Source of the DNA: Allosphingosinicella sp.
GTDB lineage: Bacteria > Pseudomonadota > Alphaproteobacteria > Sphingomonadales > Sphingomonadaceae
Direction: 5' to 3'
Assembly (NCBI GenBank): GCA_035543935.1
Contig: DATKIV010000013.1
Location: 24,412 to 88,411, forward strand
DNA length: 64,000 nucleotides
A model generated the notes under the pieces. The model searched no databases and was not told the DNA's origin. It was given only the letters and a program-made list of their open reading frames with translations. A program made the position numbers and the translations under genes. Positions 7,226-22,772 of this stretch are shown one piece after another (within the stretch, counting starts at the first letter, position 1; each line of letters begins with the position of its first letter).

Positions 7226-7434
7226 AAAAGAGGGATGGGCCCTGTCCCCCCGGCTGAAAAAGCAAGTTGACGGGTCGGGGCGGGGAAGATTAAGTCTTTG
7301 CATAACAACAAAAAGGCGAGGCTCCCGCTTGTTCGGCCAACGGGTCGGGACCCACATCCTGAACATTGCGAGTAATGAACCCGGGCCGGGGCGTGGTAAT
7401 CGCGCCGTGCCGGTCCGTATGCGGGGGAAATGAC

Positions 7435-10400
7435 ATGGTGCAGCTCTACAAGCGCAAGGGCGACGACATTCTCGTCAACACGGCGACGATCGGCAATCAG
7501 TCCGGCTCCAATATCGCCTTGCTGCCCGGGGGCGGCTTCGTCATCGTATGGACCGACGCCAGCCTGGTCGGCGGCGATACGAGCGGCCTTGCCGTCAAGG
7601 GCCAGCGCTTCGACGCCGACGGCCATAAGGTCGGCGGCGAATTCCTGGTCAACAGCACGGTGACCGGCAGCCAGACCAACCCCATCGTCGCCGCCTTGGC
7701 CTCGGGCCGCTTCGTCGTCACCTGGTCCGACGGCAGCGTCACCGGCGGCGACACCAGCAGCATTGCCGTCCGCGGCCAGATCTTCGAGGCGAACGGAACC
7801 CCGGTTGGGGCCGAGTTCCTGATCAACACCCAGACCGCCAACGCCCAGACCGGGCCGGGGATCGTCGAGCTTGCCGGGGGCGGCTTCGTGGTCAGCTGGA
7901 CGGATTCGAGCCTGATCGGCGGCGATGCCAGCGGCTCCGGCATCAAGGCGCAGATTTTCGACGCGGCCGGCGCCAAGGTCGGCGGCGAGATCCTGGTCAA
8001 TACGGAGACGTCGGGCAGCCAGACCACCTCCAGCCTCATCGCCCTGGCCTCGGGCGGCTTCGCTGCGGCCTGGACCGGCGCGATCACCGCCAGCGGCGGC
8101 GGCGTTTTCGGGTCGGTCAGGGTTCAGCTGTTCGACGCGGCCGGCGCCAAGCTGGGCACGGAGCAGATCGTCAACGCCAACAATGAAGGCAATTTCAACA
8201 GCACCATGATCAGCGCGCTGGGCTCCGGCTTCATCGTCACCTGGGCGCAGCAGGATTCGGTCTTCGGCGTCGGCATTCCGGTCACCTTCGACGTCCACGC
8301 GCAATTGTTCGACGCCGCCGGCGCCAAGGTCGGCGGCGAATTCGTCGTCAACACCACCACCCAGGGCAGCCAGTCGGGCGCCGATGTCGACGCGCTGCCG
8401 GGCGGCGGCTTCCTCGTCACCTGGCAGGGCCCCGGCACCGGCACGTCGCTCTTCAACATTTTCGGCCAGGTCTTCGACAATGCCGGCGCCAAGGTCGGCG
8501 CCGAGTTCGTCGTCACCAGCGTCACCAGCGGCAACCAGCTCGGGCCCCGGGTGGACGTCCTGCCCTCCGGCGACATCGTCATCGTCTGGACCGACAATAA
8601 CACCACCGGCCCCGATCAGTCCGGCAGCGCGATCAAGATGCAGATCCTGACCCTGACGACCGACGCGCCGACCGACATCGGGCTCTCCAGCACGTCGATC
8701 AGCGAGACGGCGCGCGAGGACGTGCCGCTGGTCAAGCTGAGCGCCACCGGCGCGCTCAATTCGACCTTCACCTATGTGATCGTCTCCGATTCCACCGGCG
8801 GCGCCTTCGCGATCGAAGGCGACAGCCTCGTCGTCGCCGACAATTCGCTGCTCGATTTCGAAGGCGATGCCCAGGTCGAGGTCCGGATCCGCGTCACCGA
8901 CCTCAACGGCAACAGCTATGAGGAGACCATCCAGCTCGACATCGCCGACACGCCCGAAGGCGGCTATGCCGCTCCGGCCGGCGAAATCCTGCTCAACACG
9001 ACGACCGCGGGCGATCAGGTGGAGCCGATCGTGACGGCGCTTTCCTCGGGCGGCTTCCTCGCCACCTGGAAGACGGTGCCGACCAGCGGCCTGCTCCTCA
9101 CCACGGGGCAGATCTTCGACGCCGCCGGCGTCAAGGTCGGCGGCGAGCTGTCGCTGAGCGACACCTATTCAGTGGCGGGGCTGCCCGGCGGCGGCTTCAT
9201 CACCGCCGGCGAGGGGACGGACGCCGATGGCGGCGGCGTCTTCGTGCAATTCCACGATGCCGCCGGCGCTCCGGTGGGTGTCCCGATCCCGGTCAACACG
9301 CAGACCGCCGGCAACCAATATGAGCCGTCGATCACGATGCTGGCCTCGGGCGGCTTCGTCGTCACCTGGACGCATTTCACGATCAGCACCTTCACCTCCG
9401 TCGTGCAGGCCCAGATCTTCGACGCCGCCGGCGTCAAGGTCGGCGCCGAGCTCCAGGTTCCGTCCATTACCTCGGGCGGCGGGGCCGAAGTGGTCGCGCT
9501 TGCGGACGGCGGCTTCGTGGTCAGCTGGACCGACGGCTCCGTCCAGGCCCAGATCTACACCGCGCTGGGCGGGCGCTACGGGCCCCAGATCACCGTCGCC
9601 GAATTTCCCAATGTCGAGCCGCACATCACCGCGCTCGCCGACGGCGGCTTCGTCGTCACTTATGCGCGCAACATTTCCAGCGGCGGCTTCACCGGCATCG
9701 ATCGGCTCACCGCGCAGATTTTCGATGCCGAGGGCAATCGGGTCGGCGATCCCATCTTGATCTCGGTCGACGGGCCCGCACAGGTCGCTTCGACCTCGGT
9801 CGCGGCGCTGCCCTGGGGCGGCTTCGTCGTCTCCTGGGCGGATTTCGGCGACGCGCCCGGCAATCCGGATTCCGACGTCGGTATCCGGGCGCAGGTGTTC
9901 GACGCGACCGGCGCTACGGTCGGCGGGCAGCAGGTCGTCAATATCGAGGGGGCCTTCTATCAGATCCAGTCCTCGGTGACCGTGCTCGAGTCGGGCGATT
10001 TCGTGATCGCCTGGTACGATTCGAGCCAGGTCGGCGGCGATGCCAGCGGCTCCGGCATCAAGGCGCGGATCTTCTCGGTCGAGGAAGTCTCCGGCCCCAC
10101 CGAAGGCCCCGATTTCCTCAACGGCACGTCCGGCAGCGACGTCATCGATGCCCTGGGCGGCAATGACGTCGTCAACGGGCTGGGGGGCAACGACATCCTC
10201 CTGGGCGGCTCCGGCGACGACGAGCTCAACGGCGGCGAAGGCAATGATACGCTGTACGGCGAGGGCGGCGCCGACATCGCGCGCGGCGGCGCGGGCGACG
10301 ACGTCTATATCGTCGATTCGATGGCCGACGTGACCGAGGAGGCGGCCGGGGCGGGCAATGACACGATCGTCACCACGCTCAGCTACATCCTCTCGTCCAA

Positions 10401-11376
10401 CCAGGAGATCGAGACGCTCACCACCCAGGCGCATGCGGGCACCGACGACGTCTTCCTGACCGGCAACCAATATAACAACACTTTGATCGGCAATGCCGGC
10501 GACAATATCATGAACGGCGTCGACGGCGCCGACGTGATGTACGGCCTCGACGGCGACGACACTTATGCGATCGACAATGTCGGCGACCTGGTGGTGGACG
10601 GCTTCGGCCAGGGTAACGATCTGGTCCTCACCTATCTCAGCCACACGCTTTCGAACGGCAACCAGATCGAGACGCTGTCGACGGTGTTCCACCAGGGCAC
10701 GACCGCGATCAACCTGGGCGGCAACGACTATGACAACACTTTGATCGGCAATTACGGCGCCAATTATCTCAACGGCAATGGCGGCATCGACGTCATGATC
10801 GGGCTCTACGGCGACGACACCTATGTCGCGGACAATGCCGGGGATGTGGTGCAGGAGGTTGCCGGCGGCGGCGCCGACCTTCTCTACAGCTTCGTCAGCT
10901 ACACGCTGGCGGCCGGGCAGGAGGTCGAGATCATCTCCACCGCGGTCCAGGGCGGCAGCACCGCGATCAACCTCACCGGCAACGAGTTCGCCCAGACCAT
11001 CGTCGGCAATGCCGGCGCCAACCTGATCGACGGCAAAGGCGGCAACGACGTGCTCTACGGCCTTGGCGGCACCGACACGTTCGCGTTCACCACCACGCTC
11101 GGCGCCGGCAATGTCGATACGCTCGCGGACTTCGTGGCGGGCACCGACAAGATCGGTCTCGACGACGCTATCTTCACCGCGATCGGCGCCACGCTCAATG
11201 CCAGTGCCTTCGTGATCGGCACGGCGGCTGGCGACGCCGACGACCGCATCGTCTACAACAGCACGACCGGCGCTCTCTTTTACGATGCCGACGGCTCGGG
11301 TGCCGGCGCGGCGGTCCAGTTCGCGACCCTGAGCCCGGGCTTGGTGCTGACCGCCGGCGACTTCACGATGATCTAG
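7435..11376 (+). CDS. RTX type I-secreted protein 3: two 7-repeat beta-propeller-like regions, a cadherin domain, RTX tail
   Basis: ATG 7435 after GGGGGAA; 14 repeats of VNT..G.Q..P.V..L..GGFVV.W...QIFDA.G.KVG.E; cadherin-like PTDIGLS...LDFE...VRVTD; shared C-terminal cassette. Confidence 0.85.
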   Translation: MVQLYKRKGDDILVNTATIGNQSGSNIALLPGGGFVIVWTDASLVGGDTSGLAVKGQRFDADGHKVGGEFLVNSTVTGSQTNPIVAALASGRFVVTWSDGSVTGGDTSSIAVRGQIFEANGTPVGAEFLINTQTANAQTGPGIVELAGGGFVVSWTDSSLIGGDASGSGIKAQIFDAAGAKVGGEILVNTETSGSQTTSSLIALASGGFAAAWTGAITASGGGVFGSVRVQLFDAAGAKLGTEQIVNANNEGNFNSTMISALGSGFIVTWAQQDSVFGVGIPVTFDVHAQLFDAAGAKVGGEFVVNTTTQGSQSGADVDALPGGGFLVTWQGPGTGTSLFNIFGQVFDNAGAKVGAEFVVTSVTSGNQLGPRVDVLPSGDIVIVWTDNNTTGPDQSGSAIKMQILTLTTDAPTDIGLSSTSISETAREDVPLVKLSATGALNSTFTYVIVSDSTGGAFAIEGDSLVVADNSLLDFEGDAQVEVRIRVTDLNGNSYEETIQLDIADTPEGGYAAPAGEILLNTTTAGDQVEPIVTALSSGGFLATWKTVPTSGLLLTTGQIFDAAGVKVGGELSLSDTYSVAGLPGGGFITAGEGTDADGGGVFVQFHDAAGAPVGVPIPVNTQTAGNQYEPSITMLASGGFVVTWTHFTISTFTSVVQAQIFDAAGVKVGAELQVPSITSGGGAEVVALADGGFVVSWTDGSVQAQIYTALGGRYGPQITVAEFPNVEPHITALADGGFVVTYARNISSGGFTGIDRLTAQIFDAEGNRVGDPILISVDGPAQVASTSVAALPWGGFVVSWADFGDAPGNPDSDVGIRAQVFDATGATVGGQQVVNIEGAFYQIQSSVTVLESGDFVIAWYDSSQVGGDASGSGIKARIFSVEEVSGPTEGPDFLNGTSGSDVIDALGGNDVVNGLGGNDILLGGSGDDELNGGEGNDTLYGEGGADIARGGAGDDVYIVDSMADVTEEAAGAGNDTIVTTLSYILSSNQEIETLTTQAHAGTDDVFLTGNQYNNTLIGNAGDNIMNGVDGADVMYGLDGDDTYAIDNVGDLVVDGFGQGNDLVLTYLSHTLSNGNQIETLSTVFHQGTTAINLGGNDYDNTLIGNYGANYLNGNGGIDVMIGLYGDDTYVADNAGDVVQEVAGGGADLLYSFVSYTLAAGQEVEIISTAVQGGSTAINLTGNEFAQTIVGNAGANLIDGKGGNDVLYGLGGTDTFAFTTTLGAGNVDTLADFVAGTDKIGLDDAIFTAIGATLNASAFVIGTAAGDADDRIVYNSTTGALFYDADGSGAGAAVQFATLSPGLVLTAGDFTMI
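10381..11376 (+). repeat. Shared 996-nt RTX C-terminal cassette, copy 3
   Basis: SYILSSNQEIETL to stop, 996 nt. Confidence 0.9.
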
Positions 11377-13795: not shown

Positions 13796-14827
13796 ATGAG
13801 CGAAGTGAGGTTAATGCCCAGCTGCGGTTCCGCGAAGCGTCTGTCGCGCCTTCGCCTTCGCCATGTCCCCGCGGCGATGCTCGCGGCCGGGACGTTCTGC
13901 GCGGCCTCGCCCGCGCAGGCGGCGCGCACGCCCGCGGGCACGGTCATCAACAACAGCGCCACCGCCACCTATGATCTGCCCGGCGGCGGCCAGGACGTCG
14001 TCACCTCCAACGTCGTCAGCCTGACCGTCGACGAATTGCTCGACGTCAGCGTCGCCTCGGCCGACGGCGGCGACGTTTCGACAATGCCCGCCGCGGTCAA
14101 CCAGCTGCTGACCTTCCGAGTCACCAATGCCGGCAATGGCAGCGAGGCCTTCGTGCTGACCGCGCGCGACAATGCCGGCGGCGACGATTTCGACCCCGCC
14201 ACGACCTCGATCGTCCTCGATGGCAATGGCAATGGGGTCTACGATCCCGGCGTCGACATCGTCTACGTGCCCGGCTCGAACAATCCGGTGCTCGACCCGG
14301 ACGGCTCGATCGTCGTGTTCGCCCTCTCCTCGATTCCCGCCGGAGCGAGCAACGGCCAGCGCGGCCGCGTCGATCTCGTCGCGGTCGCCGCGACCGGCTC
14401 GGGCGCGCCGGGGACGAGCTTCGCCGGCCAGGGCCAGGGCGGCGGCGACGCCGTCGTCGGCGCGACCGGCGCCGATGCCGAGGATGACGGGTATTACGCC
14501 GTCCAGGCGGCCTCCGTCGCCTTCGTCAAGAGCGCCAGTGTCGCCGATCCGTTCGGCGGCGTCACCCGGGTGCCCGGCTCGATCATTACCTATCGCCTCG
14601 TCGCCACCGTCGGCGGCGCGGGCAGCCTCGCCAATTTGCGCATCGCCGACGCGATCCCGGCCGGCTCGACCTTCCGGCCCGGCTCGATCACGCTCGAAGG
14701 GGGCGCGCTCAGCGACGCCGCCGACGCCGATGCGGGAGAATTTACCGGGTCGGGCATCGCCGTCCGCCTCGGCACCGTCGCCGCGGGGGCCACCCGCATT
14801 GTCACGTTTCAAGTCGCGATCGACTGA
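13796..14827 (+). CDS. Secreted DUF11/Ig-like protein A (putative pilin)
   Basis: Signal peptide ending PAQA; N-terminal GTVINNSATATY; DGNGNGVYD loop; C-terminal DUF11-like domain FVKSAS...IADAIP...VTFQVAID; exact start uncertain (13796/13814). Confidence 0.75.
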   Translation: MSEVRLMPSCGSAKRLSRLRLRHVPAAMLAAGTFCAASPAQAARTPAGTVINNSATATYDLPGGGQDVVTSNVVSLTVDELLDVSVASADGGDVSTMPAAVNQLLTFRVTNAGNGSEAFVLTARDNAGGDDFDPATTSIVLDGNGNGVYDPGVDIVYVPGSNNPVLDPDGSIVVFALSSIPAGASNGQRGRVDLVAVAATGSGAPGTSFAGQGQGGGDAVVGATGADAEDDGYYAVQAASVAFVKSASVADPFGGVTRVPGSIITYRLVATVGGAGSLANLRIADAIPAGSTFRPGSITLEGGALSDAADADAGEFTGSGIAVRLGTVAAGATRIVTFQVAID

Positions 14828-14838
14828 AGGAGTCTGAA

Positions 14839-15300
14839 ATGAAACTCATCTTGATCCTGCTCGCTCTCCTGCTGCCCTCGGCAGCACTGGCGCAGAACCA
14901 GGTCGCCCTGAACAGCGAAGTGTTCGTCGAGCGCGCCACGCAGGACGCGAACGGCCAGCCGCGGGTCTCGCTCGAGGCGCCCGCCGTGGTCACGCCCGGC
15001 GACCAGCTCGTCTTCGTGCTCAGCTACCGCAACAATGGCGCGGCGCCGGCGAACGATTTCACCGTCACCAACCCCCTGCCGGATTCGGTTAGCTTCGCAG
15101 GAACAGAAAGTGCCGGAGCGGTTTATTCCGTCGACGGCGGCCGCAATTGGGGGGCGCTCGCCGCGCTCCAGGTCCGCAACGCCGACGGCAGCCGCCGCCC
15201 GGCCGCGCTCGCCGACGTCACCCACGTGCGCTGGCGGCTCGCTTCGGCGATCCCGGCCGGCGGCGGCGGGGAATTGAGATTCAGAGGCGTTGTAAAATAG
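14839..15300 (+). CDS. Secreted single-domain DUF11-like protein B
   Basis: MKLILILLALLLPSAALA signal, AAGGAG RBS; PGDQLVFVLSYRNNG...VTNPLP repeat-domain motif. Confidence 0.75.
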   Translation: MKLILILLALLLPSAALAQNQVALNSEVFVERATQDANGQPRVSLEAPAVVTPGDQLVFVLSYRNNGAAPANDFTVTNPLPDSVSFAGTESAGAVYSVDGGRNWGALAALQVRNADGSRRPAALADVTHVRWRLASAIPAGGGGELRFRGVVK

Positions 15301-15374
15301 ACCTCTAACCCGCGGAGCGGCGCCAGCGGGGGTGGAAACGGCGCCGTCAATCGACCAGAAAACGGACCAGAACC

Positions 15375-16433
15375 ATGAAAACCTATACGCGCTTGGGCGC
15401 GGCGGCGAGCATATTCGCTGTCGCGGCGGTGACGGCTTCGCCCGCCTCCGCAGCCGGCACCGCTGCCGGTTCCACTATCACCAACAACGTCTCCGTGGCC
15501 TATCAGGTCGGTGGCGTTTCGCAGACCGGCCTTTCGGCAAGCAACAGCTTCACGGTCGACCGCAAGGTCAATTTCACCGTGGCCGAGGACGGCAGTTCGA
15601 CGACGACGGTGTCGCCTGGCCAGCTGGCCGCGGTGACCAGCTTCATCGTCACCAACACCTCCAACGCCCCGCTCGATTTCGCCCTCGCGGCGACCAATCG
15701 CGTCGGCGGCACCGCGGAGCATGGCGGCACGGACGTTTTCGACGTGTCCAATTTGCGGCTCTACGCGGACACCAACAACAACGGCGCTTATGACAGCGGC
15801 ACTGACGTTTTGATCACCTATCTGGATCAAATCGCTGCCGATGCCAGTGCCAGGGTGTTCGTCCTCGCCGACGTGCCGCTCGGCCGTTCGACCAACGAAG
15901 TCGCTGGCGTCCGGCTGACCGGCACCGCGTCCGAAGCGACCGCCGCCGGCTCGCTCGGCGCGGTCGTCACCCAGACCGCCGGCGCCAATACCGCCGGTGT
16001 CGACACCGTCTTCGCCGACACCAATGTCGGCGGCAATACGGCGCGCGACGGCATCCACTTCGACGAGGATGATTATACCATCTTCGCCGCCGCGCTGACC
16101 GCGACCAAGACCAGCCGAGTGATCAGCGATCCGCTCAACGGCGCGACCAACCCCAAGCTCATCCCGGGCGCGGTCGTCGAATATTGCATCACCGTGGCCA
16201 ATGGCTCCGGCGGCGCCGCGGCCGCCAACGTCGCCATTTCCGATACGCTGCCGGCGACGACGACCTATGATGCCTCGTTCGGCGTCAAGGTCAACGGCAC
16301 GGTGACGAGCGGGACGTGCAATGCCGACGGCGCGATTGTCGGCGCGCACGCTTCCGGCGTGGTCAGTGGAACGATTCCGAGCATCGTGGCGGGCGACACC
16401 CGCACCGTGCTGTTCCGCGTGACGATCAACTAG
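15375..16433 (+). CDS. Secreted DUF11/Ig-like protein C (putative major pilin)
   Basis: Signal ending PASA; GSTITNNVSVAY; DTNNNGAYD loop; ATKTS...PGAVVEYCITVAN...ISDTLP...LFRVTIN. Confidence 0.8.
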   Translation: MKTYTRLGAAASIFAVAAVTASPASAAGTAAGSTITNNVSVAYQVGGVSQTGLSASNSFTVDRKVNFTVAEDGSSTTTVSPGQLAAVTSFIVTNTSNAPLDFALAATNRVGGTAEHGGTDVFDVSNLRLYADTNNNGAYDSGTDVLITYLDQIAADASARVFVLADVPLGRSTNEVAGVRLTGTASEATAAGSLGAVVTQTAGANTAGVDTVFADTNVGGNTARDGIHFDEDDYTIFAAALTATKTSRVISDPLNGATNPKLIPGAVVEYCITVANGSGGAAAANVAISDTLPATTTYDASFGVKVNGTVTSGTCNADGAIVGAHASGVVSGTIPSIVAGDTRTVLFRVTIN

Positions 16434-16482
16434 GCGTGGTTAAGGCGAGCGGGCGCGAGCCCGCCAACCTTTTCGGAAACGT

Positions 16483-19400
16483 ATGAAAACCCGAGCTCAT
16501 CTTCTCGGGGCGACCTTGCTCGCCTTCCTGGCGTCGCTGATCCTAGCGGCGCCAGCGGAGGCGGGCGCGCCCGCGACGCGCACCCTCACCAATGTCGCGA
16601 CCATTTCCTGGGATGCCGGCGGCCAGCATGTCGAGCTTCCCTCCAACCGCGTCGACATCGACGTGGTGCCGCCGCCGTCCACGACCGCAATCCTCGAGAC
16701 GCTGCGGCTGACCGACACCCTCTTTCCTCCCGCCGTGCTCGCCGGCACGTGCAGCGCCGCCACGAGCCAGGCGCAGCAGACGCCGCTGCAGGGGCCCGAA
16801 CCGCCGCCGCTTTCTTCATTGGCGATGATCGCGACCAGCGAGCTGGTCGCCGGCCGGCCGATCGTGCTGTCGCTCGACCGGCCTTCCGCCAATCGCGACA
16901 GCCAGGCCATCGAAACCATCATCGTCGTCGTCGAGACCGATCTCGGCGACCGCGAGCGGATCGCCCTCGTCGAAACCGGCGCCGACAGCGGCCGCTTCAT
17001 CGGCATCTTGCTGACGACGACCGGCCCGCCCGTCTCCGGTGACTGCCGCTTCTCGGTGCGCCCCGACCAGGCCTTGGTGCTCACGCTCAGCGACGCCGTC
17101 GGCGGCGCCGCGGTCGCGCGCAAAGAGGTCGCAATCCTTGTCGATCCCTTCGGCATCGCCTTCGACAGCCGCGACGGCGCGCCGGTTTCGGAGGTTCGCA
17201 TCACCCTGATCGACGCCGCCACCGGCCAGCCGGCCCTGGTCTTCGGCGACGACGGCATTTCCTCCTATCCGTCGACGATCGTCACCGGCCGGAGCGTCAC
17301 CGATGCGGGCGGGATGCGCTACGATTATCCGGCCGGCGACTATCGCTTCCCGCTGGTGCGGCCGGGCCGCTACCGGCTGATCGTCGAGCCGATCGCGCCT
17401 TATACGGCGCCGTCGGTCGCGACCGCCGCCGATCTTGCGCCCTTGCGACGACCGGATGGGCTGCCCTTCGTCGTCGTGGCGGGATCCTATGGCGGCGAGA
17501 TCCTGCTTGCGGGAACCGGAGCGGTACGAATAGATATTCCGCTCGACCGGCCGGTCACGCCGATCCTGCTCAGCAAGACCGCGTCGCGCGCCGAGGCCGA
17601 AGCGGGCGATCTCGTCCAATATCGGGTGATCGTGCGCAATCCGGACGCCAATGCGGCGACCGGCGCGCTCTCTATCACCGATCGAATCCCGCATCAGATG
17701 CGGTTGCGAACCGGATCGGTAAAAATCGACGGTGTGAACGTACCAGACCCCGCGAATGGCGGCGCCCGCGTGCTGACTTTCGCATTGCCCTCGCTCGCGC
17801 CTGCGGCGCAAGCCACCCTGACCTACGTGCTCGAGGTTCGCCCCGACGCGCGCCGCGGCGACGCGCTCAACCGCGCCCAGGCCGCCGGACCGCGCGGCAA
17901 TGTCAGCAATATCGCCGACGCCCTCGTCCGCATCCGGCGCGAGACGATCCTCGACCGGATGACGATCACCGGCCGTGTCGTCGACGGCGGCTGCGGCGTC
18001 GATCCCCGGACGCGTCCCGGCATCGGCGGCGTCCGCATCATGCTCGAGGACGGCAGCTACGCCGTCACCGACGCCAGCGGCCTCTACCATTTCGAAGGCG
18101 TGATGCCCGGCACCCATGTCGTCCAGCTCGACGACGCGACCCTGCCCGCCGACCGCGCCGCGGTCGATTGCTCGCGCAACGTCCGCTCCGGCGGCCGCGC
18201 TTTCTCGCGCTTCGTGTCGGGCCAGGGCGGGTCGCTGATGCGCGTCGATTTCCACGCCGCCGAATCCGTGCCGCGCGCCGCCGTCGCCCGCCGCACCGCG
18301 GAACGGCCCGCCGCGGCAACCGACCCCATCGCCGCCGGCGCCGAGCGCGACTGGTTCGCGGGCCAGGAGCCGGGCATCGCCTGGCTGTTCCCGGAGGTCG
18401 ACCACAATCCGCGCGCGCCGGTCGTCCGGGTCGCGATCAAGCATCTGCCCGGCCAGAGCGTGCGCCTGCTCAACGGCGGCCGCCCGGTCGATCCGATCGC
18501 CTTCGAAGGCGCCAGGGTCAACGAGGCCGGCACTGTCGCGGTCAGCCTCTGGCGCGGCATCCCGATCGAGGACCGCACGACCAGGCTCACCGCCGAAATC
18601 CGCGACGCCAACGGCACTGTGGTGACGATCCTGACCCGGCCCGTCACCTTCTCCAACGTCGCGGTCCGCGCCGAACTGGTGCGCTCGCGCTCGCTGCTCG
18701 TCGCCGACGGCGTCAGCCGGCCGGTGCTTGCCTTGCGCCTGACCGACAGCAACGGCCGCCCGGTCCATCACGGCCTGGCCGGCGATTTCGAAGTGCCCGC
18801 GCCTTATTATCCCGCGGTCGAGGCCGACGCCCAGCAGGCGCGCCAGCTCGCCGGGCTCGAGCGCGCGCGGCCGGTCTGGCACGTCGAGGGCGAGGACGGC
18901 GTGGCGTATGTCGAGCTCGAGCCGACCACCGCTTCGGGCACCGTCACCCTGCGCTTCAATTTCCGCGACGGCGAGCTCGTGCGCGAGCAGCGCGTCGAAG
19001 CCTGGCTCGATCCCGGCGAACGGCCGTGGACGATCGTCGGCCTCGCCGAGGGCACGATCGGCTTCAACCGGCTCGACCGCAACATGGAGGCGCTGGGCCA
19101 GGATCCGGGCCGCAACGAGGTGATCACCGACGGTCGTCTCGCCCTCTATGCGCGGGGCCGGATCAGCGGCCGCTGGCTGATGACGCTCGCTTATGACAGC
19201 GACAGAAGGGAATCGGAGACCCGCTTCGGCGGAGTCATCGATCCGACCGCTTATTACACCGTCTACGCCGACCGCTCGGAGCGCCGTTACGACGCCGCCT
19301 CGGTGCGCAGGCTCTATCTGAGGCTCGAGCGGCCGCAATTCTATGCCCTGTTCGGCGATTACGACACCGGCATCGACGAGCCCGAGCTCGCCCGCTACGT

Positions 19401-21576
19401 CCGCTCGATGAACGGCCTCAAGGCCGAATATCGCTCGGACCGCGTCTCGGCGACCGCCTTCGCCTCCGACACGCCGAACCGCCACCGCCGCGACGAAATC
19501 CAGGGCAACGGCCTGTCCGGCCCTTATGCTTTGGCCAGCCGCAACCTCCTCGCCAATTCCGAGCGGGTGACGATCGAGGTTCGCGACCGGCTCCATTCGG
19601 AGCGGATCCTCGAAAGCCGCCTGCTGATGCGCCATATCGATTATGACATCGACTATGCCGCGGGCACTTTGCGTTTCCGCGAGCCGATCCTGAGCCGCTC
19701 GTCGGCCCTCGATCCGCAGTTCATCGTCGCCGATTACGAGGTCGACGGAATCGCCTCGCGCGAGCTCAACGCCGGCGGCCGCGTCGCTTGGCGCAGCGCC
19801 GACCAAAGGCTGCAGGTGGCGGCGACCGCGATCCACGACAATGACGGCACCACCCGCACCAATCTGGGCGGCGTCGACGTCCGCTTCCGGCCGACGCCGA
19901 GGACCGAGATCCGCGCCGAAGTGGCGGTCAGCGACAGCCGCGCCACGGCGGCCGGCGGCGCCGCGCCGGCGCAGGGCGGCACCGCCACGGCCTGGCAGAT
20001 CGAGGTCGAGCATCACGACCGCCGCTTCGACCTGCTCGCTTACGCCCGCGAGCGCGAGGCCGGCTTCGGCGTCGGCCAGCTCAACGCCTCGGGCAACGGC
20101 ACGAGGAAGATCGGCATCGACGGCCGCGCGCGCCTCACTGACACCTTGTCGCTGACCGGCAGTGCCTGGACGGAAGATTATCTGGGCAGCGAGGCGCGGC
20201 GGATCGCCGGGCGCGCCTTGCTCGAATATCGCGGCCGCGATTTTTCGGCGCGCGCCGGCCTCACAATCGCCGACGACCGGCTCGCCGACGGCCGCACCGC
20301 CCGTTCGCAGATCCTCCAGCTCGGCGCGACAAGGCGCTTCTTCGGCAACCGGCTCGAGCTCGACGCGCAGACCGAGCTGCCGATCGGCGGCAGCGACGAC
20401 AGCATCGACTTTCCCGCCCGCCACCGCCTCTCGGCGCGCTTCGCGGTGAGCCGCAGCGTCGCCTTGATCGGATCCTACGAGATCGCCGACGGCGAGCATA
20501 TCGACGCGCGCACCGCCCGGATCGGCTTCGAGCTCGCGCCCTGGGCCGGCGCGCGCATCGCCTTGACCGGCAACATGCAGAATATCGCCGAATATGGCCC
20601 GCGCAGCTTCGCCGCCTTCGGCCTGTCGCAATCTTTGGTGCTGTCGGAGCGCTGGTCGGTCGATTTCACCCTGGACGGCAACCGCACGCTCGGCGGGATC
20701 GATCCGACCCGCGTGCTCGATCCGCTCCATCCGGTGGCGAGCGGCGGCTTCGTCGGCGACGGCGCCACGCTCACCGAGGATTTCACCGCGGTCACCGCGG
20801 GCGCGACCTATCGCGCCGGCCGCTGGAGCCTCACCGGCCGCGCCGAATATCGCGCCGGCGACCGCGAGGACCGCTACGGCGTCACCTTCGCCGCGCTTCG
20901 CCAAATCGGTGAAGGACGCGCGGTGGGGGGCGCGCTGAACTGGTTCACGGCCGAAGCCCCGGGGGGCGCCCGCACGCGCACCGCCAACGTGCAGCTGACC
21001 TGGGCCCACCGCCCGGCCAACAGCGCTTTCTCCTTCCTCGACAAGTTCGAGCTGCGCGAGGACATGGTGCGCGGCGCCGTCGCCGGCGTGCCCGGCCCGA
21101 TCGGCTCGCCCTTCACGATCACCGGCGACGCCCGCTCGCGACGCGTCGTCAATTCGCTGGCGGTCAATTACTCGCCTTATGGCGGCGGCCCCGGCGCCGG
21201 CTATTTCGGCCGCACCGAGCTTTCGTTCTTCTGGGGCAGCCGTTACGTCTCCGAGCGCGTGAGCGGGGACGACATCAAGGGCTGGAGCAACGTGGTGGGG
21301 GGCGATATCAGGTTCGATCTCAACGACATCGTCCAGATCGGCGCGGCCGGCAGCGTGCGCCAGGGCGTCGGCGGCCGCTCCTATTCCTTCTCGGGCGGGC
21401 CGAGCGTCGGCATCCGGCCGTTCGACAATGGCTGGCTCACCGTCGGCTGGAACATCGTCGGCTTCCACGACCGCGATTTCGAGCAGGATCGTTATACAAG
21501 GAGCGGCCCCTACGTGACCATGCGGATCAAATTCGACCAGTTCAGCCTGGCCGGGCTCGGCCTGGGGCGGCGATGA
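16483..21576 (+). CDS. Large outer-membrane protein D: Ig/SdrD-B-like domains, complete DUF11, predicted C-terminal beta-barrel
   Basis: Signal ending PAEA; LSKTAS...GDLVQYRVIVRN...ITDRIP...LNRAQA; ITGRVVD...TDASGLYHFEGVMPG; second half of alternating amphipathic strands ending YVTMRIKF. Confidence 0.8.
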   Translation: MKTRAHLLGATLLAFLASLILAAPAEAGAPATRTLTNVATISWDAGGQHVELPSNRVDIDVVPPPSTTAILETLRLTDTLFPPAVLAGTCSAATSQAQQTPLQGPEPPPLSSLAMIATSELVAGRPIVLSLDRPSANRDSQAIETIIVVVETDLGDRERIALVETGADSGRFIGILLTTTGPPVSGDCRFSVRPDQALVLTLSDAVGGAAVARKEVAILVDPFGIAFDSRDGAPVSEVRITLIDAATGQPALVFGDDGISSYPSTIVTGRSVTDAGGMRYDYPAGDYRFPLVRPGRYRLIVEPIAPYTAPSVATAADLAPLRRPDGLPFVVVAGSYGGEILLAGTGAVRIDIPLDRPVTPILLSKTASRAEAEAGDLVQYRVIVRNPDANAATGALSITDRIPHQMRLRTGSVKIDGVNVPDPANGGARVLTFALPSLAPAAQATLTYVLEVRPDARRGDALNRAQAAGPRGNVSNIADALVRIRRETILDRMTITGRVVDGGCGVDPRTRPGIGGVRIMLEDGSYAVTDASGLYHFEGVMPGTHVVQLDDATLPADRAAVDCSRNVRSGGRAFSRFVSGQGGSLMRVDFHAAESVPRAAVARRTAERPAAATDPIAAGAERDWFAGQEPGIAWLFPEVDHNPRAPVVRVAIKHLPGQSVRLLNGGRPVDPIAFEGARVNEAGTVAVSLWRGIPIEDRTTRLTAEIRDANGTVVTILTRPVTFSNVAVRAELVRSRSLLVADGVSRPVLALRLTDSNGRPVHHGLAGDFEVPAPYYPAVEADAQQARQLAGLERARPVWHVEGEDGVAYVELEPTTASGTVTLRFNFRDGELVREQRVEAWLDPGERPWTIVGLAEGTIGFNRLDRNMEALGQDPGRNEVITDGRLALYARGRISGRWLMTLAYDSDRRESETRFGGVIDPTAYYTVYADRSERRYDAASVRRLYLRLERPQFYALFGDYDTGIDEPELARYVRSMNGLKAEYRSDRVSATAFASDTPNRHRRDEIQGNGLSGPYALASRNLLANSERVTIEVRDRLHSERILESRLLMRHIDYDIDYAAGTLRFREPILSRSSALDPQFIVADYEVDGIASRELNAGGRVAWRSADQRLQVAATAIHDNDGTTRTNLGGVDVRFRPTPRTEIRAEVAVSDSRATAAGGAAPAQGGTATAWQIEVEHHDRRFDLLAYAREREAGFGVGQLNASGNGTRKIGIDGRARLTDTLSLTGSAWTEDYLGSEARRIAGRALLEYRGRDFSARAGLTIADDRLADGRTARSQILQLGATRRFFGNRLELDAQTELPIGGSDDSIDFPARHRLSARFAVSRSVALIGSYEIADGEHIDARTARIGFELAPWAGARIALTGNMQNIAEYGPRSFAAFGLSQSLVLSERWSVDFTLDGNRTLGGIDPTRVLDPLHPVASGGFVGDGATLTEDFTAVTAGATYRAGRWSLTGRAEYRAGDREDRYGVTFAALRQIGEGRAVGGALNWFTAEAPGGARTRTANVQLTWAHRPANSAFSFLDKFELREDMVRGAVAGVPGPIGSPFTITGDARSRRVVNSLAVNYSPYGGGPGAGYFGRTELSFFWGSRYVSERVSGDDIKGWSNVVGGDIRFDLNDIVQIGAAGSVRQGVGGRSYSFSGGPSVGIRPFDNGWLTVGWNIVGFHDRDFEQDRYTRSGPYVTMRIKFDQFSLAGLGLGRR

Positions 21577-22772
21577 TGCGCGCGCGGCTCTTCCTTCTTG
21601 TCGCGGCGCTGCTGCTGCCGCCGCTGCTGGCGGCGCCGGCCCGAGCGGCGTGCGACGCGAGCAACACCTATAACTTCGCCTTTTCGAGCGTAGCCGATAC
21701 GTCGCTAACCTATGGGACCACATACACTTATACAGCAACGAACCCACTTGGCGCGACGCGCGCGTTTACATTCCGTGCCGTCAACAATGGCCTGAGCTCG
21801 ATCCAGGTGAACAGCGACAATATGCCGCAGATCAGCGGCGACCTCACCAGCGGCACCGGTGGCAAGACGTTCCAGATCGGCGGCACCTTCCCCTCGCGCA
21901 CCGCGAGCATCACCTCGAACACGCGGACCATCCGGCTGACGATCGCGTTCGCGGTCCCGGTTCGCGACATCATCGTGAACGGCCACGATGCCGACTTCAC
22001 GAGCAACCAGTTCCGGGATTGGGTCCATCTGACCGGCTCGGACGGCACCTCGACCTTCGTGCCGGCGCTGTCGGCCCCGGCCGGGAACAATAACGGCGCC
22101 GGCGCGCGCACGGCGACGGGCTCCTCGGTCAATTTCGGGGCCGACAACGCTCCCTTCGTCCTCACCAGCAACGAGGCGGTCGGCGTCAGCACAAGCGCCG
22201 ATGTAAACGTGACCACCGGCGACGTCGTCATCAGCTTCCCGCAGCCGGTGACGTCGGTCACGATCAGCTACGGGAACTTTCCGCTACAGTCGGGCGAAAC
22301 GTCGACGGGCCAGCAGCGCTTCGGCATTTCCCAGGTGCGCTTCTGCCCGATGCCCTCGCTCGCGATCGCCAAGACCTCGGCCCCTTACGTCACCACGGCG
22401 GGATCGCCGGACAGGTTCAACGCGCCAGGCTCGGACGTCGCTTATTCGCTCACCGTCACCAACAGCGGCGGCAGCCCCGTCGATCTCAGCAGCCTGGTGC
22501 TGACCGACATGCTGCCAACGGGCGTCACCTTCTATAATGGCGACTATAATCCGGCCGTGCCGGGCATGGGGCCGTTCGAGCTCACCGCCGGGACCAGCGG
22601 CATCACCTTGCCCGCGGGCGGCCGCGCTTATTCCAACAATAACGGCTCGACCTACGTCTACGCGCCCGCGGCCGGCTACGACGCCAATGTCGATGCGGTG
22701 CGGCTGACGCCGACGGGAAGCATGGCCGCCAATTCGAGCTTCACCATCCGCTTTCGGGCGCGGATCAATTGA
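21573..22772 (+). CDS. Secreted protein E with unique N-terminal beta-rich domain and C-terminal DUF11-like domain (putative tip adhesin)
   Basis: ATGA overlap with D; signal ending PARA; Cys pair (ACD.../FCPMP) flanking the N-domain; IAKTS...PGSDVAYSLTVTN...LTDMLP...FRARIN. Confidence 0.75.
   Translation: MMRARLFLLVAALLLPPLLAAPARAACDASNTYNFAFSSVADTSLTYGTTYTYTATNPLGATRAFTFRAVNNGLSSIQVNSDNMPQISGDLTSGTGGKTFQIGGTFPSRTASITSNTRTIRLTIAFAVPVRDIIVNGHDADFTSNQFRDWVHLTGSDGTSTFVPALSAPAGNNNGAGARTATGSSVNFGADNAPFVLTSNEAVGVSTSADVNVTTGDVVISFPQPVTSVTISYGNFPLQSGETSTGQQRFGISQVRFCPMPSLAIAKTSAPYVTTAGSPDRFNAPGSDVAYSLTVTNSGGSPVDLSSLVLTDMLPTGVTFYNGDYNPAVPGMGPFELTAGTSGITLPAGGRAYSNNNGSTYVYAPAAGYDANVDAVRLTPTGSMAANSSFTIRFRARIN

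Follow-up and report, generated by a model that had tools for sequence, protein, structure and literature searches.

Split CLIPPER (DUF11) domains in a conserved Sphingomonadales operon: candidate subunits of a self-ligating surface fibre

Introduction

CLIPPER domains, the Pfam family previously named DUF11 (PF01345), are found in fibrillar adhesins, and the crystal structure 9IFR shows one with a Lys715-Asn806 isopeptide bond and Asp748; only intramolecular bonds have been described (Costa et al. 2025, PMC12617251). Here we analyze five genes of Allosphingosinicella sp., termed A to E, whose products appear to carry this domain and its Lys-Asp-Asn triad in two parts, the acceptor part at the end of one polypeptide and an Asn-bearing donor hairpin at the start of another. 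They lie at 13796-22772 of a 64,000-nucleotide stretch of contig DATKIV010000013.1 (assembly GCA_035543935.1, positions 24,412 to 88,411 of the forward strand), which we call the window; coordinates below are window positions, except where they are given for another locus (L035, L044).

Locking of fibre subunits by bonds between chains has been described elsewhere. BsaA of Clostridium perfringens, of the TasA family, uses "donor-strand exchange and lock" (PMC11580942), and the thread filaments of Sulfolobus acidocaldarius combine donor strands with intermolecular isopeptide bonds (PMC9715654). Related literature on fibres covers tafi (PMC11821415), and a filament protein with 49 DUF11 domains has been reported (10.1101/2025.08.19.671072). 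An earlier note on this DNA had proposed a covalently cross-linked donor-strand pilus and knew of no description of its architecture. As to the principle this needs amending, with BsaA and the archaeal threads as precedents. As to the system itself we found none: the full-text literature that we searched, most subscription journals being outside it, held no description of a split CLIPPER domain, of this operon or of its barrel.

A CLIPPER domain divided between genes

Genes A to E are co-oriented, and each product has a Sec-type signal peptide ending A-x-A at its N-terminus. Neighbouring genes on either side are unrelated, some of them lying on the opposite strand. The genes and the layout of their products are as follows (ORF, open reading frame).

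13796-14827, + strand: gene A, ORF of 343 aa; signal peptide, donor hairpin, middle Ig-like domain, truncated CLIPPER acceptor
14839-15300, + strand: gene B, ORF of 153 aa; signal peptide and a bare truncated CLIPPER domain, without hairpin
15375-16433, + strand: gene C, ORF of 352 aa; laid out as A
16483-21576, + strand: gene D, ORF of 1697 aa; signal peptide and donor hairpin, then a pilin-like stalk and some 850 aa of C-terminal region
21573-22772, + strand: gene E, ORF of 399 aa; signal peptide, orphan N-terminal domain, truncated CLIPPER acceptor, without hairpin

The TIGR01451 profile (DUF11 repeat) matched all five proteins at 26.9-36 bits against a cut-off of 24, A reaching 36. With Pfam DUF11, B (28.6 bits), C and D (36.8 bits for its internal copy) were above the 24.6-bit cut-off and A (15.2) and E (20.1) below it; A matches the profile of the C family at 7e-50. 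The internal copy of D is complete, as had been claimed, with K365, D400 and N463 in frame and an alignment running from position 4 to 97 or 98 of the 114 profile positions. Coverage was 14-83 for A, 9-84 for C and 11-71 for B, and A and C end about 14 profile positions before the alignment end of the complete copy. The distance from Lys to C-terminus in A, 98 residues, is the same as the span from K365 to N463 in the complete domain of D.

The Lys and Asp residues previously assigned to A, C and E were all found in frame on the stated residue. The claim that these chains end abruptly before the Asn-bearing hairpin, at VAID, VTIN and ARIN respectively, was borne out by the DUF11 alignment and by homologues. 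Lys, catalytic Asp and Asn occur within one contiguous domain only in the internal copy of D; the A, C and E chains stop before the Asn strand.

14507-14824, + strand: A acceptor domain, with K245 and D285; ends VAID
16086-16430, + strand: C acceptor domain, with K245, D290 and a Cys271/Cys315 pair; ends VTIN
22347-22769, + strand: E acceptor domain, with K267 and D312; ends ARIN
17554-17937, + strand: complete internal CLIPPER domain of D, with K365, D400 and N463; the in-window control

Hairpins with the motif h-x-N-x-A ... S-N-x-V-x-x-x-V were located at the mature N-termini of A, C and D, where the earlier note had placed them. One correction applies to A: judged by register with C and D, its donor residue is N53, the later of the two Asn in VINNSA.

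13937-14032, + strand: A donor hairpin, residues 48-79, GTVINNSATATY...SNVVSLTVDE, with Asn N53; motif kept in orthologues
15468-15560, + strand: C donor hairpin, residues 32-62, GSTITNNVSVAY...SASNSFTVD, with Asn N37
16576-16665, + strand: D donor hairpin, residues 32-61, TRTLTNVATISW...PSNRVDIDV, with Asn N37; a VPPP linker comes next

When real hairpins were appended to the acceptors of A, C and E, the Pfam DUF11 score rose by 4-7 bits and coverage extended from about position 84 to 97-98, which is where the complete copy in D ends. The gain was 5.1 bits for the A acceptor, with coverage to position 98, and 5-6 bits for the E acceptor; one shuffled control gained 0 bits.

Conservation of the split

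The C family comprises 2321 representatives at 50% identity, 385 of them with expectation (E) values of 1e-30 or below. We aligned C with 103 representatives at 35-57% identity. Among the resulting 104 sequences, donor N37 was kept in 100, acceptor K245 in 94 and D290 in 99, with all three residues in 90; D62 was invariant (104/104). The chain terminated in the same alignment column as C in 98/104, and Cys271 and Cys315 were present in 90 and 85 members. A orthologues kept Lys and Asp in 10/10 and the donor Asn in 9/10. The donor Asn and acceptor Lys, whose conservation the earlier note had made a test of its proposal, are thus conserved in both groups of homologues, and the joint conservation of triad residues and truncation point argues that the split is more than chance.

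C also has a conserved stretch at its first mature residues, 26-32 (15450-15470), reading A-x-G-T-x-A-G, with A26 in 103/104, G28 in 94/104 and T29 in 102/104. This exceeds what signal peptidase needs, and the stretch matches the loop joining acceptor to hairpin in a contiguous domain; it may be a recognition element.

Among 401 sampled Pseudomonadota genomes the C-family profile had matches in 17, and 7 of these belong to the 16 genomes from the window's own family. A survey of gene neighbourhoods, which had been suggested earlier, showed the operon layout recurring in 11 further loci drawn from the same family, another family of the class and other classes, three classes of Pseudomonadota in all. 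The order A-B-C-D was kept in nine of the 11, the other two being without an A-type or B-type gene, and an E-type gene followed D or preceded A in eight. Every A, C and D orthologue present in these loci starts with the hairpin, and every A, B, C and E orthologue present ends at the truncated point. Allosphingosinicella and other Sphingomonadales supply close homologues, annotated ones being present in cultured genera that include Allosphingosinicella and Parasphingorhabdus. The database names of homologues are throughout "hypothetical" or "DUF11 domain-containing". A reading of the genes as a defence system was dropped, there being no PADLOC matches.

Orphan donor and orphan acceptors

Three of the proteins have only one half of the split domain to offer. 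D is the donor among them. Its internal triad, K365/D400/N463, was invariant in 131/131 homologues; despite this complete triad of its own, D also keeps the N-terminal hairpin, with N37, A39 and N55 invariant in 95/95 homologues. By these comparisons the hairpin is an orphan donor.

E-type proteins show the reverse. Their N-terminal parts are unrelated to one another; the proteins measure 217-979 aa overall and their N-domains 0 to some 850 aa, and the hairpin is absent from all of them. Lys and Asp were kept in 9/9 aligned copies, and a tenth copy (locus L044) has the same C-terminal end. At the lower extreme, the E-type protein of locus L035 (about 10747-11250, genome G347) consists of a signal peptide and a truncated CLIPPER domain with Lys and Asp only. 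As a bare acceptor, its own chain holds nothing that could complete its domain, and by sequence it is a minimal, catalytically competent cap without an adhesin head. In the window, the N-terminal domain of E (21648-22352, about 230 aa) is bracketed by Cys27 and Cys258; it matched no Pfam family and had no meaningful sequence relative in the PDB, and it is a candidate orphan adhesin head.

B is an acceptor of another kind. The catalytic Asp is absent (VTNPLP), the Lys is not in register and there is no hairpin. In B orthologues of the genome loci, Asp was absent in 11/11 (replaced by Asn in 9) and Lys mostly absent, and all end at the truncated point; a further B-type protein, from the metagenome locus L044, has Asp and lacks Lys. 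B is probably a catalytically dead, non-covalent acceptor, a chaperone or cap that would hold donor hairpins reversibly.

Taken together, the sequence comparisons indicate that a CLIPPER domain and its triad are split between polypeptides, and that this arrangement is conserved, with an orphan donor (D) and orphan acceptors (E competent, B dead).

Natural tandem fusions

In the P0129 protein (696 aa) a single chain combines two C-type modules. The end of the first reads ...FSVTVN; 7 residues on, without a signal peptide, the second hairpin begins SIANTGSVAY... The same junction occurs in P0391 and P0392, the three proteins being 70% identical to one another. One of these last two fusions is located at 10001-12103 of L044, within a homologous operon on a 306-kb contig that encodes a 596-aa E-type protein, A, B, the fusion, a second C-type protein and a D of 1999 aa. 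That D carries an OmpA (peptidoglycan-binding) domain, which the D of the window does not.

At the fusion junction Lys, Asp and Asn are in canonical order and spacing. The 7-residue linker equals in length both the corresponding loop of the complete domain of D (EVRPDARRGDALNRAQA) and the stretch from cleavage site to hairpin in C. Acceptor (n) and hairpin (n+1), joined here by evolution, read as one ordinary CLIPPER domain, an arrangement that completion between chains predicts.

Protein D and its membrane region

The D stalk is made of CnaB-like domains and one complete CLIPPER domain. A Foldseek search with the AlphaFold2 model of D residues 1-520 found the stalk to resemble the sortase pilins BcpA, RrgB, SpaA, SpaD and EbpB (E 1e-9 to 1e-7). 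The CLIPPER domain in this model aligned to 9IFR with a template-modelling score, TM(target), of 0.76, a root-mean-square deviation of 3.4 A and 21% identity.

The remainder of the protein is of another character.

19024-21573, + strand: C-terminal region of D, 850 aa, presumed outer-membrane beta-barrel; ends ...YVTMRIKFDQFSLAGLGLGRR

These last 850 aa matched no Pfam family and no PDB sequence. Comparison of the C-terminal profile with FimD by hhalign gave a probability of 0.6%, and the 12-strand autotransporter barrel family PF03797 had no match at E up to 1, either in D or in the C-terminal regions of 12 orthologues. Orthologues yielded stray single-member matches to the PagL, DUF481 and DUF2490 families. 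The region shows dyad-repeat strand segments and has a conserved R-x-K-F-D-Q end. We presume that it forms an outer-membrane barrel, one whose family is uncharacterised. Single barrels of 38 and 40 strands have been predicted elsewhere (Solan et al. 2021, PMC8346858).

The region was found in 49 of the 401 Pseudomonadota genomes, including all 17 with C-like subunits. Its matches include proteins of 1100-1450 aa that cover just the first ~400 positions, and the family is wider than the split-CLIPPER operon.

Export and assembly machinery in the genome

The genome is 99.95% complete. Profile searches of it gave no match to sortase (PF04203) or to the usher family (PF00577); controls were detected in both searches, that for the usher being from E. 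coli. No C-terminal LPXTG sorting signal is present, the C-termini reading VAID, VTIN, ARIN and VVK. As for a PapD-like chaperone, B matches DUF11 alone and is without a donor segment; no separate search of the genome with PF00345 was made. None of the five proteins had a Pfam or NCBIfam match to the TasA or camelysin families.

Conserved Cys pairs (C271/C315 in C, C27/C258 in E and two pairs in D) suggest that the subunits fold in the periplasm. Export after periplasmic folding would need a wide pore, for which the D barrel is the sole candidate in the operon.

Gene spacing in the operon

Genes A and B are separated by 11 nt, with AGGAG inside (14825-14841); in several of the orthologous loci the two share 4 nt instead. 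The stop codon of D overlaps the start of E as ATGA (21573-21576). Gene C is set apart by spacers of 74 nt before it and 49 nt after it. This suggests fixed 1:1 ratios of A to B and of D to E, with separate and perhaps higher output of C, and coupling of A-B and D-E beside a free-standing C fits the subunit stoichiometry proposed below.

The 49-nt spacer 3' of C contains a GC-rich stem-loop, GCGGGC-GCGA-GCCCGC (16449-16464), followed by CAACCUUUU; its z-score against shuffles was -1.2, which is not significant. As is known downstream of major pilin genes, it could serve as a partial terminator and increase C relative to D.

Upstream of the operon is a 1336-aa repeat protein (7366-11376) with an RTX-like, Gly/Asp-rich C-terminal region, unrelated to the operon.

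Discussion

We favor, as the probable reading, a surface fibre formed by between-chain completion of the split CLIPPER domain. The hairpin of one subunit would complete the truncated domain of the preceding subunit, yielding a beads-on-a-string chain. E, an acceptor only, with its variable adhesin-like head, would form the tip and accept the first shaft hairpin; each new subunit would then plug into the free acceptor at the proximal end. The shaft would be repeated C, with A a minor or adaptor subunit. Growth would end when the D hairpin fills the last acceptor, tying the fibre to the outer-membrane barrel of D, through which the fibre might also pass if that barrel serves as exit pore. Reversible binding of donor hairpins would make B the mirror image of a PapD-type chaperone. 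The D-E overlap would provide one tip per anchor, and the free-standing gene would make C the major subunit. The earlier note had set out this layout (E acceptor only, A and C donor and acceptor, D donor only, no sortase), and the E-type proteins, the Asn of D, the fusions and the genome search all lend it comparative support.

Each junction would probably be locked by a spontaneous, sortase-free Lys-Asn isopeptide bond, with Lys and Asp contributed by the acceptor and Asn by the donor. The lock is probable because acceptor Lys and Asp and donor Asn correspond to the residues that take part in the intramolecular bond when a CLIPPER domain is complete. It also fits that B, the sole component expected not to bond, is without the catalytic residue. 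The fullest form of the proposal is a new class of pilus in outer-membrane bacteria, in which split-CLIPPER subunits self-ligate through intermolecular Lys-Asn bonds without sortase, usher or strand-donating chaperone, in a chain running from a variable adhesin to a giant barrel that acts as terminator, anchor and probably exit pore. This we advance tentatively, as a serious possibility that falls a little short of an even chance.

Several observations weigh against the fibre or its lock, or lend it little. Our own hidden Markov model, built from 131 complete D domains, gave the acceptor-plus-hairpin constructs a gain of only z ~2 against 30 shuffles. The natural fusion junction brought no rise in Pfam DUF11 score, the profile tail carrying little signal. 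The permuted construct of acceptor and hairpin found only chance matches among PDB sequences. The profile evidence is supportive but weak, and the weight of the argument lies with the motif, the invariance of the Asn and the pattern seen in the comparisons. The barrel assignment of D is based on sequence character. Folded, disulfide-bearing subunits would have to cross the outer membrane, perhaps through the D barrel. Two further points, the monomer models and a clade with an altered acceptor, belong with the alternatives that they favor.

The first and main alternative, which we consider unlikely, is completion within the chain: the hairpin of A or C would fold onto the C-terminal domain of the same chain, with the middle domain inserted between them and the Lys-Asn bond intramolecular. 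The products would be closed monomers, and at most the D hairpin and E acceptor would pair, showing E on D. Gram-positive pilins (RrgB) are known to have isopeptide domains that are non-contiguous, another domain being inserted in them, which counts in its favor, as does the fact that chains of the C family combine a highly conserved donor Asn with a highly conserved acceptor Lys. The AlphaFold2 monomer of C, predicted from the 104-sequence alignment, points the same way. Its mean predicted local distance difference test score (pLDDT) was 94.8 and its predicted template-modelling score 0.83, and the hairpin, with strands 34-41 and 53-60, was modelled at pLDDT ~95 with no dip towards the middle domain. 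In this model the hairpin is presumably packed on its own C-terminal domain. Foldseek with the C model returned generic tandem Ig proteins only. Fold-back of the hairpin on its own chain had been named beforehand as speaking against the proposal, and we grade the result ambiguous, since self-complementation is the usual outcome when donor-strand subunits are modelled as monomers; FimA has been solved as a self-complemented monomer (5NKT, cited in PMC11821415). The D hairpin is not clearly free either. The model of D 1-520 had pLDDT 89, with other domains at 93-98, and its hairpin strands (33-45 and 48-61) were at 79-90, with lower-scoring blocks of 52 and 69 (the VPPP linker) on either side, which fits a hairpin locally formed and loosely held.

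Within-chain completion does poorly on the comparative evidence. It leaves E-type and B-type proteins permanently incomplete, though ten E-types keep Lys and Asp and one of them, at L035, is a bare acceptor. It does not explain the extra invariant hairpin of D, which calls for pairing between chains. The natural fusions, moreover, set the hairpin in canonical position behind the preceding domain.

The second alternative keeps the strand-complemented fibre between chains and removes the covalent lock, Lys, Asp and Asn being retained from the ancestral domain only as buried residues with a structural role. We regard it as quite improbable, although a clade of C-like proteins (P0123, P0150, P0154, P0165, P0178, P0186, P0221, P0244; loci L047, L048 and L050) speaks for it. 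These have Arg in place of the acceptor Lys and keep the donor Asn, as do all three of the Arg-type C-like genes that stand in tandem at L050. Since Asn is kept there without Lys, it may be kept for structural reasons and some fibres may be non-covalent; Arg-type subunits may be non-covalent fibre variants or subunits of mixed bonding. In the A orthologues of L039 and L048, the donor Asn position holds Ser. BsaA oligomers, furthermore, are stable in sodium dodecyl sulfate even without their bond (PMC11580942). Against this stand the retention of all three residues in 90 of the 104 C-family members, the loss of Asp in all 11 genome-locus orthologues of B, the component expected not to bond, and the crystallographic evidence that the same three residues do bond in a complete domain (PMC12617251).

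Two lines of pairing evidence were given up on account of L050. Joint loss of Lys and Asn between chains had seemed visible at L048, where the A donor Asn is lost and one C-type acceptor has Arg; the tandem Arg-types keeping Asn undid this. Retention of Asn without Lys in the same chain, as a sign of bonding between chains, was dropped for the same reason. Mean-field direct coupling analysis on 256 C-family sequences, comparing the hairpin with the C-terminal or middle domain, gave gap artefacts as its top pairs.

A reading without any fibre, with D an autotransporter-like adhesin, A, B, C and E accessory or secreted and the hairpin a targeting signal for the D barrel, is very improbable: D does have an N-terminal passenger and a C-terminal membrane region as in type V secretion proteins, and every hairpin-bearing protein is exported, but a targeting signal needs no invariant Asn in exact DUF11 register and leaves the truncated domains at the other end unexplained, E, the most cargo-like protein, has no hairpin, and no autotransporter barrel family matches D.

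Should between-chain completion with a covalent lock be correct, one more pilus assembly pathway would join the short Gram-negative list, in a system common among soil and water Sphingomonadales. Autocatalytic isopeptide chemistry, so far seen within single chains or, by sortase, between chains, would be seen to link subunits in diderms. A role would be assigned to a large family of outer-membrane proteins that is uncharacterised and present in ~12% of the 401-genome Pseudomonadota sample. The operons would also be a natural source of orthogonal peptide-protein ligation pairs, an evolved family with several donor/acceptor specificities in each operon, useful in protein engineering.

Comparison with known systems

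The nearest relatives by family are the CLIPPER fibrillar adhesins, with which the operon shares the domain and its Lys-Asp-Asn triad; the internal copy of D is canonical, and the proposed chain of subunits would resemble their tandem-repeat stalk. Their domains are contiguous and their bonds intramolecular, whereas here the last two strands, with the Asn, start other genes.

In architecture the closest parallel is with chaperone-usher pili (type 1 and P; FimA-H, FimC, FimD). As proposed here, the N-terminus of each subunit would fill in the incomplete Ig-like fold of the one before it, a two-domain tip adhesin would accept without donating, and assembly would run tip first and base last; the operon likewise consists of subunits, a small helper and a large outer-membrane protein. 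Unlike those pili, this system has no usher or PapD-like chaperone by sequence and would donate a two-strand hairpin rather than one strand. The helper B would accept, the membrane protein bears a donor hairpin and a stalk, and the junction could be covalent.

The proposed chemistry is closest to that of BsaA, whose N-terminal, Asn-bearing donor enters the next subunit, where Lys and a catalytic acid form an enzyme-free intermolecular isopeptide bond. BsaA differs in its unrelated fold and family, monoderm host and single donor strand, and it lacks an outer-membrane component as well as tip and anchor subunits. Sulfolobus threads likewise combine donor-strand complementation with isopeptide bonds between the subunits of a surface fibre, but they are archaeal, built from one subunit type with another fold and other bond partners, and have no split domain family and no barrel anchor.

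Sortase pili (BcpA, RrgB, SpaA) share CnaA/CnaB-type domains with Lys-Asn bonds and covalently linked subunits, and the D stalk has a similar fold; here the host is diderm, its genome has no sortase and the proteins no LPXTG, and the link would be made by the chemistry of the domain itself. In the full covalent reading, the split CLIPPER domain would be the natural counterpart of an engineered pair, SpyTag/SpyCatcher.

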